The notes under the pieces: generated by a model | What the model was told of the DNA's origin: nothing | Databases searched by the model: none | The model's input: the letters and a program-made list of their open reading frames with translations, nothing else | Shown here: piece by piece, positions 8,373 to 52,614 of the stretch | Layout of the letters: each line of letters starts with the position of its first letter | Position numbering within the stretch: the first letter of the stretch is position 1 | From: a virus | Strand: one strand, 5' to 3' | DNA: 64,000 bases | IMG/VR virus record: IMGVR_UViG_3300047510_003167 | Coordinates: 8,472-72,471 of that record | Program-made: the position numbers and the translations under genes

Positions 8373-9277
8373 TGGCTAACGGAAAATGGGTAAATGTTCC
8401 TGGTAAGGGTCGTCGCTTTTTAACAAGTGAGGGCGAATATCGCTATGGCGATCCCAACGCACCTTTGGCTCCTGCGGCAAGTGCAGTTAAAAGCTTTTTT
8501 GGCGGAATTTTAAACGCACAACCGCGCTTTTCTCCAGAGCAGATGCGTGGTTTAACTGCTCCTGGCCTGTCGTCCTCCGCTGGTGCAGCCGCAGGTCCAT
8601 CCAAGGGACAGCAACGTCCTGATGGTAAGTTCTACACAGGCTCTCGATATGGCTGGCAATCAGGTTCTTCTGCTGCCCGTGCCGGTTTATTGGGCTCTGA
8701 AGTTGTGGGTGATGCAGCCTTTGGTGGTGCCCGCTCTCCCATGGGACCCCCGATTCCTGGGCGTATTGCCAACGCCCCCAGTCCCTTAGCCCTTCCTTTA
8801 CCAACCTCCGGAAGCTCTTTTGCCACTGATGGTTCGCCCGCAGATCGTGCATATCAACAAGAAGCTTCTCGTGTCGCCCAATTGACCGCACAAGATCCTG
8901 AACTTCAGCGTTACGAAAAAGCACGTAGTGCTGCCAAGACTCAAGAGGAGATGAACGCAGCTCGTGACATCGGCATGCAGATTTGGCAGCAAAAGTATGG
9001 CGGCACTCCCATGGGACAACCTGGTGGTGCGGTTGGTTCTTTTAATCCCTTGATGCAAAAAACCTTTGGCTATCAGGCGGGCATGTCTCCGAATCAGATT
9101 GCACAGACGATTACTAACCCTGCAGATATTCCGGTTGCCCCTGGTGAGGCTCCGTATCAAACAGGTGATTTTGGCACACGCGTGGGAGTTACCGGTTATG
9201 ATCCGGTCAAGTATGGAATCACGCCTGAAATGATTGAGCAACTTAAAGCTCAGTCCCTGGCACAAGCTCGAAAATAA
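8372..9277 (+). CDS. Hypothetical (possible internal virion) protein
   Basis: Long ORF; ATG overlaps previous stop (TAATG). Confidence 0.65.
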   Translation: MANGKWVNVPGKGRRFLTSEGEYRYGDPNAPLAPAASAVKSFFGGILNAQPRFSPEQMRGLTAPGLSSSAGAAAGPSKGQQRPDGKFYTGSRYGWQSGSSAARAGLLGSEVVGDAAFGGARSPMGPPIPGRIANAPSPLALPLPTSGSSFATDGSPADRAYQQEASRVAQLTAQDPELQRYEKARSAAKTQEEMNAARDIGMQIWQQKYGGTPMGQPGGAVGSFNPLMQKTFGYQAGMSPNQIAQTITNPADIPVAPGEAPYQTGDFGTRVGVTGYDPVKYGITPEMIEQLKAQSLAQARK

Positions 9278-49691: not shown

Positions 49692-49898
49692 ATGGCATTA
49701 TCTTCTCAAGTTAAAGAAGCTGTCAATCAATCAGCCAGTGCCTTGCGTGAGGGCCTTGCTTTTGCCGCACGCACTGAACACCCTGTTGTAATTAGCACGA
49801 TTACCGACATCTTGGTACGGCTTGAATCACTTGAGTCCATGGAAGAAATCATGGAAAAGTTTGGCAAACCCCGCGACCTTCCTTCATTCTTTGGCTGA
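49692..49898 (+). CDS. Hypothetical protein
   Basis: MALSSQVKEAV...LAFAARTEHP. Confidence 0.65.
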   Translation: MALSSQVKEAVNQSASALREGLAFAARTEHPVVISTITDILVRLESLESMEEIMEKFGKPRDLPSFFG

Positions 49899-50064
49899 CT
49901 TTAAAGTTCCAAGCGACCAACAACGCCTTGAGAATTACTTCTGGGAACTAGAACGTCTTATCCCTAATCCGGGAAAAGACTGGGCCAAGGCTGCGAAACC
50001 ATGCAAGTGGGCAAAGATACTAAAAGAAAAAGCCAATCGCAAGGGAGGCGAGCCCGGTAAATGA
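49891..50064 (+). CDS. Hypothetical protein
   Basis: TTG start overlapping previous stop; ends RKGGEPGK. Confidence 0.45.
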   Translation: MADFKVPSDQQRLENYFWELERLIPNPGKDWAKAAKPCKWAKILKEKANRKGGEPGK

Positions 50065-50101
50065 TTTTGTGCTATTGTAAGGAAAGCACAAAACACCTCT
50101 A

Positions 50102-50710
50102 ATGCAAAAACTGTGTCGTGAATGCGGTATTAGAAAACCGCACGAAAATTTTCAAAATAAAGGAGTTACATCTTCTGGCAATATAAAAAGAAGTAGTGTT
50201 TGTAAAGAGTGCAGCTCTATTCTTAATCGTCGTTTTAAACTTTTGTATGGCGTAGATGGACAAAAACAGTGTTCCAAATGCGCTCATTATTTAGATTGGG
50301 ATTGTTTTAGAAAAAGAAAACAAGATGGCAAAACGTATTTACACTCTTCTTGTAAAACTTGCAACAAAATAAAATGGGACAAATGGGTAGAAAATAATAA
50401 AGAGCATTATCAAAAAATTAAAAAACAAGGTCAAAATATATTTCATCATGAACACAAGAAATACGAACGAAGAGGCATTACAAAAGAACAATATGAATTT
50501 GTTTTTAAATTACAAGAGGGAGTTTGCGCAATTTGCCAAGAATTACCTAAAGATAATCAATCTTTAGCAATGGATCACAACCATAAAACCAATGAATTTA
50601 GAGGATTACTGTGCAAAGAATGTAATAGAGCTCTGGGCTTGTTTGGTGATAATATAGATGTATTGACAAACGCAGTCATTTATCTTAAAGAACGAGGCAG
50701 CTATGGCTGA
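50102..50710 (+). CDS. Endonuclease VII-like homing endonuclease
   Basis: Four N-terminal CxxC motifs, then QEGVCAIC...MDHNH..RGLLCKECNRALG; very AT-rich. Confidence 0.9.
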   Translation: MQKLCRECGIRKPHENFQNKGVTSSGNIKRSSVCKECSSILNRRFKLLYGVDGQKQCSKCAHYLDWDCFRKRKQDGKTYLHSSCKTCNKIKWDKWVENNKEHYQKIKKQGQNIFHHEHKKYERRGITKEQYEFVFKLQEGVCAICQELPKDNQSLAMDHNHKTNEFRGLLCKECNRALGLFGDNIDVLTNAVIYLKERGSYG

Positions 50711-51011
50711 AGATAAAAGCAAGTACACAAAACCTGACTTACGTGAACGTATTAAAAATCGCGTAATGCGCGAAGGCCGGGGTGGAAAACCAGGGGAATG
50801 GTCGTAGCCGTGAGGCTAAATAACTTCGGCACGTAAAGCTCAACTGGTTGCTCAGCAATATAAAGAAGCCGGTGGCGGATATAAAGGCGGCAAGGGTGAG
50901 AAGCAAAAGTCTTTAGAGAAGTGGGGAGAAGAAAAGTGGCAGACCAAGGATGAATACGAGAAGCGCTCCAAAGCTAAGTCTGCAGCCAAAAAATATAAGG
51001 AGAATAAGTAA
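50703..51011 (+). CDS. Basic conserved protein (DUF5872-like) interrupted by a 24-nt coding gap (not in ORF track)
   Basis: YTKPDLRERIK...GGKPGEWS [gap 50805-50828] ARKAQLVAQQYKEAGGGYKG...QKSLEKW; both halves in one frame. Confidence 0.75.
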
Positions 51012-51721
51012 TGGACGCTCGTCAACAAGCTCAAAGCTTTTTAAAAACTTTTAATTTACAAGAAGCAAAAGATAAAATTATTCGTTCGTCACAGCTTTCA
51101 ATAAATAGCGGCGGATATGAATTACCTGGAGCAACTTGGCGACAGCTTACCAATCAAATAGAAAAAGAAGAAAAACAAATACCTTTAGTTGCAAAAAATA
51201 AAATAGTTGAAAAACAATCTTTAAATCTATTAAAACAACAAAATCTTCAACAAAAAATACAAGCAAATAAAGAAGATTTAAGAGCACAAGCCCATAAAGC
51301 TTTATCGACTAATCCGGCTGTTAAGTTAAACACTAATCAAGTTATTAGCGATAGTTGGCTTCCCGGTCAAGCCAGTGCAGCAGCTCATTCTTACAAAGAA
51401 GATGTTTTGTCTTATGCATTAGAAGCTTCTAGAATTAGAAATATGCCAATTCAAAAAGCTGTTCAAGAAGCTGTTCAAAATGTCTCCCCTTCTTCTTATT
51501 TAGGAAACGTGCCTTTAAATGCTGGAGAAACTACTCAGATAGCAACAGCCGCAAGTAATCCTTATTTTCAAAGGCTTGTAGAATCAGATGAGTTAGGGTA
51601 TAGCCCAAGAGAAGCCCTGGAAATTTATAGTAAAACAGATCCAAAATTTTTATACGGAGCAGATAATTTGCGTACGCAAATTAAAAAAGAAGATTTTGAC
51701 GATGAATGGGAAATGTATTAA
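51011..51721 (+). CDS. Hypothetical protein
   Basis: 236 aa, AT-rich, TAATG-coupled at both ends. Confidence 0.65.
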   Translation: MDARQQAQSFLKTFNLQEAKDKIIRSSQLSINSGGYELPGATWRQLTNQIEKEEKQIPLVAKNKIVEKQSLNLLKQQNLQQKIQANKEDLRAQAHKALSTNPAVKLNTNQVISDSWLPGQASAAAHSYKEDVLSYALEASRIRNMPIQKAVQEAVQNVSPSSYLGNVPLNAGETTQIATAASNPYFQRLVESDELGYSPREALEIYSKTDPKFLYGADNLRTQIKKEDFDDEWEMY

Positions 51722-51930
51722 TGGCTGACAAAGCAATTCAACCTGGGTATACCAAGCGTTACTTACCAGAAAAAGCGTGGGCTTCTTTATCGAAAGAAGA
51801 ACGGGAGGAAACTGATCGCAAGAAACGAGAAGGTAGCAGGCAAGGAAAACAATTTATTCCTAATACGGAAACCGCCAAGAAAGCTGGTAAGGCTGCACGA
51901 GCTGCAAAGCATTATAAAAAGAAAAAGTAA
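51721..51930 (+). CDS. Basic protein resembling the C-terminal half of DUF5872-like proteins
   Basis: KRYLPEKAWASLS.EE...TDRKKREGS..GKQF.PNT. Confidence 0.7.
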   Translation: MADKAIQPGYTKRYLPEKAWASLSKEEREETDRKKREGSRQGKQFIPNTETAKKAGKAARAAKHYKKKK

Positions 51931-52365: not shown

Positions 52366-52614
52366 TTGCCTAACAGCAGAGCAAAACTTCAAGAGAATCG
52401 AAACAAACTCCTGGAGTATAAAAAAACTTTAAAGTGTGAACACTGTGGAATAAACGACCACAGAATCCTTGAGTTCCATCATGTTGGAACTAAGGATCAC
52501 AACATATCAACAATGGTTAATTACGGATACGCCTGGCGGCGCATCCAAGAGGAAATAGAAAAGTGTATTGCTTTATGCTGCAACTGCCACAGGCTTGAGC
52601 ACTGGAGCGATTAA
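52366..52614 (+). CDS. Small HNH endonuclease
   Basis: CEHCG...LEFHH...EIEKCIALCCNCHRLEH. Confidence 0.8.
   Translation: MPNSRAKLQENRNKLLEYKKTLKCEHCGINDHRILEFHHVGTKDHNISTMVNYGYAWRRIQEEIEKCIALCCNCHRLEHWSD

Follow-up and report, generated by a model that had tools for sequence, protein, structure and literature searches.

In the searchable literature, natural programmed ribosomal bypassing in phages is documented only for T4 gene 60 and its homologues, all of which, as far as the accessible parts of the sources go, are MobA cassettes in one topoisomerase gene. The signals described for gene 60 homologues are a matched or wobble-matched pair of take-off and landing codons, a stop codon in the A site, a stem-loop at take-off, and an AU-rich 3′ part of the gap that holds no premature landing sites (Manning & Atkins, bioRxiv 10.1101/2022.08.31.505936). 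In the accessible text of that preprint, the authors place all metagenomic MobA cassettes in the topoisomerase gene and describe similar bypassing as unreported in other phages. Here we describe a locus in a 64,000-nt stretch of viral DNA (positions 8,472 to 72,471 of the 72.5-kb IMG/VR virus record IMGVR_UViG_3300047510_003167; hereafter, the window), where a cassette with an endonuclease VII (Endo VII)-type homing endonuclease gene sits inside a small conserved phage gene and a gap with in-frame stop codons separates the two halves of that gene. By comparison of many alleles and by analogy with gene 60, we consider it very probable that ribosomes bypass the gap in a programmed manner and that this lets the cassette reside in the gene without recreating its own target site. 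An earlier interpretation made without database searches (the sequence-only reading) had proposed such a bypass, and every comparative prediction that could be tested, for codons, stop, hairpin, spacer, frame classes, and selection, came out in its favor.

Set against the T4 gene 60/MobA element, as the accessible text of the preprint describes it, the locus has much in common. Both have matched codons, a UAG directly after take-off, a stem-loop with a tetraloop, and an AU-rich 3′ part of the gap without premature landing triplets. In both, the gap lies at the edge of a homing-endonuclease cassette inside a conserved open reading frame (ORF), outlives the loss of the endonuclease in some lineages, and presumably shields the occupied allele from its own nuclease. 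On the other hand, the nuclease here is Endonuclease_7 (PF02945) and not MobA, a distinction drawn by Pfam family alone; T4's own mobA is a 37-codon fragment. The target here is a 94-amino-acid (aa) protein without an assigned function, whereas the T4 target is the large subunit of topoisomerase II, and the gap is 24-33 nt long, compared with 50 nt in gene 60. Unlike in T4, the hairpin begins at the stop codon and leaves the take-off codon outside the stem, and there is no mini-Shine-Dalgarno (SD) sequence 5-6 nt before the landing codon. The codons are Ser UCG here and Gly GGA or Asp in the gene 60 type. The cassette duplicates and replaces the 5′ end of the gene, whereas the T4 element divides its protein into a pair of subunits that carry extra tails; the phage is a freshwater cyanophage of the S-EIV1 type, whereas gene 60 belongs to T4-like myoviruses. 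By these differences, the cassette is not homologous to the T4 MobA/gene 60 element, though the two would work alike.

Other described systems share single features with this locus. The "byp" elements in Magnusiomyces capitatus mitochondria (27-55 nt) have a similar insert size, matched or wobble-matched codons, an AU-rich 3′ part, and no need for a well-placed SD sequence (as summarised in the accessible text of bioRxiv 10.1101/2022.08.31.505936). Unlike the cassette described here, byps are mitochondrial, spread in the manner of GC clusters, occur many times per gene, have an unassigned sense codon in the A site, and are not part of a homing-endonuclease cassette. A candidate case of regulatory bypassing involving the rare UUA codon comes from a Streptomyces phage and is, like ours, a proposed natural phage bypass outside T4; the accessible part of that report mentions no homing cassette (PMC10732093). 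As for the nuclease, F-CphI of cyanophage S-PM2 is a free-standing homing endonuclease with an Endo VII motif (PMC6083498). The nuclease in the window is likewise a free-standing cyanophage endonuclease with a C-terminal Endo VII catalytic motif (residues 120-196), and it belongs with the free-standing Endo VII-motif endonucleases, of which F-CphI is the characterised example. F-CphI reportedly targets the psbA intron-insertion site, and its gene is said to adjoin that target; the cassette described here, in contrast, interrupts the gene it targets and would depend on recoding across a gap. Our literature search, whose coverage stopped short of subscription journals and supplements, returned no description of bypass in cyanophages or in the target gene family.

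Anatomy of the gapped gene and its cassette

The gapped gene reads from an ATG at 50703 on the + strand. Its 34 codons end in TGG TCG and are followed by TAG CCG TGA GGC TAA ATA ACT and then by a second TCG, the spacing from TCG to TCG being 24 nt. All three kinds of stop codon, TAG, TGA, and TAA, lie in frame inside the gap. In the same frame, 60 intact codons come after the second TCG, starting with GCA CGT AAA and ending at TAA (51009-11), and the ORF list of the window contains no ORF of 20 aa or more that starts with ATG, GTG, or TTG 3′ of the gap in this frame. Re-reading the window confirmed the gap anatomy given by the sequence-only reading (34 codons, matched TCGs, 24 nt, three stops, and a hairpin) as well as its remark that the halves carry no other lesions.

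The two halves match one protein family. An alignment to the phrog_17747 profile runs through the gap, with 55 residues against 47 profile positions, that is, with eight extra residues (E = 7e-14). W-S-A-R is contiguous in gapless relatives, as the sequence-only reading had expected for the family: all 30 distinct gapless homologues examined have it uninterrupted. The label "DUF5872-like" attached to the family at the same time did not hold as a firm assignment and was dropped, because all scores lie below the Pfam gathering threshold of 27.5 bits (18.4 bits for the read-through sequence, 18.3 bits for the downstream half, and 20.2 and 23.2 bits for gapless homologues). The nearest named relative for the target gene is in S-EIV1, a polar freshwater Synechococcus phage, and the S-EIV1 copy is gapless. 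An AlphaFold2 model of a gapless homologue is weak (mean predicted local distance difference test score of 63); it places the junction at the start of a helix (residues 35-47), after a conserved loop, and is too weak to argue for a single fold of the two halves.

Table 1. Features of the gapped gene and its homing cassette (positions in the window)
Feature	Position	Strand	Remarks
Relic of the original 5′ part of the target gene	50041..50063	+	Codons ~26-33: K-G-G-E-P-G-K plus TG of the former Trp codon; decayed
Cassette left end, conserved junction block between relic and nuclease start	50064..50101	+	Near-invariant across cassettes; DNA leftward of it varies
Free-standing Endo VII-type (HNH-like) homing endonuclease gene	50102..50710	+	202 aa; PF02945, phrog_2633
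Gapped target gene, 5′ half	50703..50804	+	34 codons, cassette-borne replacement copy; last codon is the putative take-off TCG (50802-04)
Putative take-off signal	50805..50818	+	TAG (50805-07) as 5′ side of a 5-bp stem; GNRA loop GTGA
AT-rich spacer	50819..50825	+	7 nt in the window, 7-16 nt in relatives; sequence unconserved, TC-free
Putative landing codon TCG	50826..50828	+	Cassette-derived, since the empty L024 site has AGT
Native 3′ half of the target gene	50829..51011	+	Codons 35-94 plus stop; would be reached solely via the hop; no in-frame start codon

In the window, the cassette comprises 765 nt (50064-50828) and contains the nuclease gene, a replacement gene start, and the gap, which forms its right-hand junction with the target gene (Table 1). 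The nuclease matches PF02945 with E = 1.1e-20 over its C-terminal motif and phrog_2633 with E = 1.9e-32; its relatives of solved structure are T4 endonuclease VII (chains at E = 1e-4) and Hpy99I, and a tblastn search with it gave matches in 1803 phage records. The nuclease gene shares its last 8 nt with the beginning of the gapped gene, whose ATG is preceded at a distance of 7 nt by a GAGG from the 3′ end of the nuclease gene. In several relatives, paralogous Endo VII-like genes (31-42% identity) were seen 1.2-2.3 kb downstream of the target, namely in L007 (4742-5197), L009, L019 (4282-4752), L028/L029 (4764-5198 in L028), L052, and L069 (loci are numbered with L throughout); the ORF that follows the L028 paralogue, the sole one inspected, is uninterrupted.

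Relatives were collected by two kinds of search, both of which left the take-off codon unconstrained. Of the 457 relatives that a protein-based scan of IMG/VR identified, the 80 best were retained: 27 are gapped at the same codon and 53 are gapless. DNA pattern scans with the take-off codon given as NNN yielded 34 viral contigs and, among the 118 metagenome contigs listed, at least 62 members of the target family; the translated flank of the other 56 is unrelated to this family, and they were set aside. Including the window, the total is at least 124 gapped loci and at least 75 distinct alleles, where allele counts here and below refer to the matches listed. The gapped loci come from many samples and several studies, and gapped and gapless alleles are present together in the same lake metagenome runs, which would provide an opportunity for homing. 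The sequencing runs listed as containing the stretch include no RNA run, and the contigs compared from them are DNA contigs.

At a single fixed site, the cassette is present in some relatives and missing from others (of the 80 loci, 27 are occupied and 53 are empty). Its boundaries follow from one pair of loci, L017 (occupied) and L024 (empty): the flanks are 96-99% identical, and a 766-nt insertion separates the TG of codon 33 from codon 35; the left homology stops at that TG. Upstream of the nuclease gene is a second copy of the first 32 codons of the target gene, which resembles gapless alleles and in which a stop replaces the Trp codon. The 26-aa core of this relic is open in 34 of 41 distinct relics; the window, where the relic has decayed, keeps core positions 17-26 only. 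The ORF at 49822-50064 of the window is conserved in relatives, its middle part recurring there; in the window it runs into the relic and terminates at the stop of the relic, so that relic codons are fused to its C-terminal end.

The nuclease gene goes with the gap. At the 27 gapped loci of the protein-based set it is full length in 21, cut by the contig end in one, and reduced to its last 19-29 codons in five, and it is adjacent to the target at none of the 53 gapless loci of that set. Among the 63 distinct gapped alleles that could be assessed, it is full length in 52, partial in 6, and absent in 5, so that the gap and both halves of the gene persist in 11 of 63 alleles with a partial or absent nuclease. 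Both the link to a homing endonuclease and the upstream relic of the target, which another sequence-only note on the window had suggested, were borne out: the nuclease is found only next to gapped alleles, the L017/L024 pair captures the insertion, and most of the relics in related cassettes keep an intact core.

Conservation of the gap and selection on the two halves

The codons at the edges of the gap are strongly conserved in gapped alleles. The take-off codon is TCG and the codon after it TAG in 75 of 75 distinct alleles, and the landing codon is TCG in 72, TCT in two (L139 and L230), and TCA in one (L158). In these three alleles, the landing codon departs from the take-off TCG at its third position, which, if the hop is real, implies that wobble is tolerated or that a tRNA(Ser) decoding UCN is involved. 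The equivalent Ser codon in the 53 gapless loci is TCT (24), AGT (17), TCA (4), AGC (4), TCC (3), or TCG (1). Four-fold sites near the gap vary freely in gapped alleles.

In the window, the TAGCC-GTGA-GGCTA hairpin has a folding energy of -7.1 kcal/mol (z = -2.7; 3 of 200 shuffles fold as well), and its 14-mer occurs once in the window, compared with 0.03 occurrences expected. A longer 111-nt fold of window sequence is no better than shuffles (z = -1.0). Of the 75 alleles, 74 share one and the same stem, closed by a GTGA or GTAA loop. The lone exception, L018 (3100-3126), is the sole gapped allele with a different gap core; this core is AT-rich, and the nuclease gene and both gene halves are intact. 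RNAalifold also drew an outer GUCG/CGGC helix linking the take-off and landing regions, which is invariant, hence uninformative, and was not relied on. Matches to the hairpin as an 18-mer or 20-mer in viral contigs L092, L098, and L116 proved to be ordinary coding sequence of an unrelated gene, and there was no sign, among the viral and metagenome matches listed, that the hairpin module has moved into another gene.

The spacer sequence varies, and its composition is constrained. The 26 distinct gap strings have spacers with 88% A+T and not a single TC dinucleotide, where 8.3 would be expected; none of 10,000 shuffles reached zero. We looked for a mini-SD sequence 5-6 nt before the landing codon and found none, the sole purine-rich element being the GAGG or AAGG on the 3′ side of the hairpin. 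On the other side of the gap, position -2 is E in 74 of 75 gapped alleles versus Q in 30 of 30 gapless proteins, and the A-G-S-K of gapless alleles is replaced by R-E-G-R in the main gapped clade; a divergent gapped clade retains G-S-K. These residue differences upstream of take-off could reflect a constraint on the peptide, on the mRNA, or on the nuclease site.

Hop lengths in the 75 alleles (frame INDEPENDENCE) are 24 nt (26 alleles), 25 nt (1), 26 nt (1), 27 nt (33), 28 nt (5), 29 nt (8), and 33 nt (1); in 15 of the 75, the length is not divisible by three. A complete downstream half of 48-63 codons is present in 71 alleles; in the other four it ends with the contig. The ratio of nonsynonymous to synonymous differences in this half (pN/pS, uncorrected) is 0.20 when read in the landing frame, compared with 1.41 and 1.86 for the remaining frames; in the 15 alleles with a frame-shifting hop, it is 0.17. 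Over all comparisons, pN/pS ranges from 0.15 to 0.20 in the landing frame and from 1.3 to 2.2 in the others. This pattern shows the downstream half to be read in whichever frame the landing codon sets. The cassette-borne 5′ copy has a pN/pS of 0.10-0.22 (0.10 in the main clade, where pS is ~0.5), and none of 69 copies contains a stop. Purifying selection on both halves in gapped relatives had been named earlier as a check, and decay of the downstream half in such relatives as the outcome that would speak against a bypass; what we found was selection on the 5′ half, selection on the 3′ half (~0.2) in the landing frame only, and no early stop in any of the 71 complete downstream halves.

Hop lengths that shift the frame, combined with a downstream half that is intact and selected in the landing frame, exclude read-through, a variant genetic code, and artefact. 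A sequencing or assembly error, or read-through of the stops by suppressor tRNAs or an altered code, would agree with the in-frame 24-nt gap of the window and is nevertheless vanishingly improbable, since the structure recurs in at least 124 contigs and at least 75 distinct alleles from many samples and several studies, the gap has all three stops, TAA also terminates the gene, the window contains no detected tRNA gene, and the frame-shifting gaps of 15 alleles refute it. The assembly artefact that the sequence-only reading had named as a possible refutation can be set aside: two contigs from two other studies (runs X7 and X12) cover 50500-51014 with the gap present and no indels, and at least 123 further public contigs share the structure.

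The proposed bypass and its alternatives

We read the locus as follows. A 765-nt Endo VII-type cassette has inserted between codons 33 and 35 of a small conserved phage gene, the original start of which stays behind upstream as a relic; the cassette supplies its own codons 1-34, 21 nt that cannot be translated, and a landing codon. A ribosome that initiates at ATG 50703 would arrive with Ser-34 (UCG) in the P site and UAG as its A-site codon. The GNRA hairpin led by this UAG would form, and the peptidyl-tRNA(Ser) would release the take-off codon. The mRNA would then slide past an AT-rich spacer that offers no UCN triplet, and the tRNA would re-pair with the next UCG, 24 nt on and the first UCN available. 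Decoding would restart at Ala-35 and give a single 94-residue protein. By analogy with MobA, the purpose of the gap may be that the rebuilt gene avoids the W-S-A-R-K DNA site, which is presumably cut by the cassette's own nuclease.

Several observations weigh against this proposal. The SD-like GAGG/AAGG lies at least 10 nt from the landing codon, within the hairpin, whereas 5-6 nt is typical of T4; one gene 60 variant has GAGG 12 nt upstream of its landing codon (according to the accessible text of bioRxiv 10.1101/2022.08.31.505936). L018 has a 24-nt gap without a stable hairpin (0 kcal/mol) and yet appears intact. One contig of run X12, aligned at window positions 50787-50818, carries a divergent gapped allele whose gap apparently ends in TTG and not in a UCN codon. 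Either the allele is broken or its landing site is an unusual one, and a 26-mer search of viral contigs recovered no match to it. The stem does not covary: none of nine predicted pairs is compensatory (RNAalifold, 36 alleles), and because it never does so, conservation alone supports an RNA structure here. Stem conservation could also stem from constraints at the DNA level, such as immunity to the nuclease. Furthermore, 60 of the 75 gap lengths are multiples of three, owing to the large 24- and 27-nt groups, which are one triplet apart. The alleles are related, and since many of the pairwise differences are older than the invasion, pN/pS by itself does not prove selection after insertion. Finally, many invasions may be recent, because most relics (34 of 41) are still intact.

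An alternative to a programmed bypass is that translation stops at the UAG and then reinitiates, giving two peptides of 34 aa and ~60 aa, the second of which would start from a near-cognate ATA or ATT in the spacer with the help of the GAGG/AAGG in the hairpin. An ATA or ATT is indeed found in frame or nearby in most spacers, the SD-like element lies 10-19 nt upstream of the landing codon, and a divergent clade has an in-frame ATG six codons past the landing codon. Some spacers, however, lack a near-cognate start in the landing frame (TTATTT in L004/L093), and a canonical in-frame start is absent in the window. A-R-K-A-Q, directly after the landing codon, is kept through synonymous changes (e.g., CGT/AGA), even upstream of the clade-specific ATG. 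Since reinitiation would explain neither the invariant TCG on both sides nor the exact duplication of the Ser codon nor the TC-free spacer, we regard it as unlikely.

The recent age of some invasions suggests another possibility, namely, that a dispensable gene was inactivated by the homing cassette across many lineages in the recent past and that the downstream half has had no time to decay. The intact relics fit such a history, as do the flanks of L017 and L024, which differ by only 1-4%, and much of the downstream pN/pS signal could be older than the invasion. The cassette-only 5′ copy, on the other hand, has accumulated synonymous differences (pS ~0.5) under constraint (pN/pS 0.10) and is free of stops. 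The relic serves as an internal neutral control: it has decayed in 7 of 41 cases, the window included, whereas none of the 71 downstream halves is damaged (Fisher p = 6e-4). At the seven loci with a decayed relic, the downstream half is complete in six, again including the window, and cut by the contig end in one. The gap and the halves outlast partial or full loss of the nuclease in the 11 alleles noted above. Spacer length has changed at least six times, with no lesion elsewhere in the 71 complete halves. A dead gene would also be expected to lose the TCG/TAG/TCN arrangement and the TC-free spacer. The 5′ copy, the decay of relics, the loss of nucleases, and the spacer changes together argue for maintenance of the gapped gene after invasion, and a gene already dead appears quite unlikely.

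A third possibility is that the gap is removed from the mRNA, by a small intron or by hairpin-based cleavage and ligation, and that a continuous message is translated in the ordinary way. The gap is flanked by a 3-nt direct repeat and has a conserved hairpin inside, as such a process might use. To our knowledge, there is no class of self-splicing introns of 21-30 nt, and excision would require neither a stop immediately after the 5′ junction, nor a landing codon limited to the UCN codons of Ser, nor a spacer free of TC. We therefore hold excision to be very unlikely.

Neighboring genes and wider meaning

The surroundings of the gapped gene differ from those in most relatives. A 236-aa ORF without a Pfam or PHROG match (51011-51721) lies between the gapped gene and a phrog_14910 gene (51706-51930); it looks like another insertion, because the phrog_14910 homologue directly follows the target gene in most relatives. 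Farther downstream, an 82-aa ORF with HNH-type Cys/His motifs (52366-52614) adjoins a structured region. Among distant relatives, nine (L271, L277, L279, L280, L283, L288, L298, L304, and L311) have a target-family gene that ends after a G-G-G-Y motif (~1560-1640) and is followed by a second cistron in another frame, mostly with an ATG that overlaps the stop or lies just past it. This is an ordinary two-gene layout and not a gap.

If programmed bypassing is what keeps the gapped gene working, the recoding field would gain a second, non-homologous cassette, whose gap is much smaller and occurs in 26 natural variants (24-33 nt). With a smaller element, one could work out the sufficient signals, the distance over which a tRNA scans, and the wobble that landing tolerates, and one could test whether bypass gaps serve to protect a homing cassette against the nuclease it encodes. 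For annotators, it would mean that small phage genes interrupted by stops beside endonuclease genes may be intact. On balance, we think it somewhat more likely than not that bacterial (cyanobacterial) ribosomes need no more than a 14-nt GNRA hairpin led by UAG, an AU spacer free of TC, and a matched UCG to hop 24-33 nt efficiently; this would be a minimal module that evolved independently of T4 gene 60. If so, unrelated families of homing endonucleases would have repeatedly recruited bypassing as self-immunity when invading conserved coding sequences, and programmed bypassing would be a general and overlooked solution in phage genomes, where the genes that use it are annotated as split or truncated.

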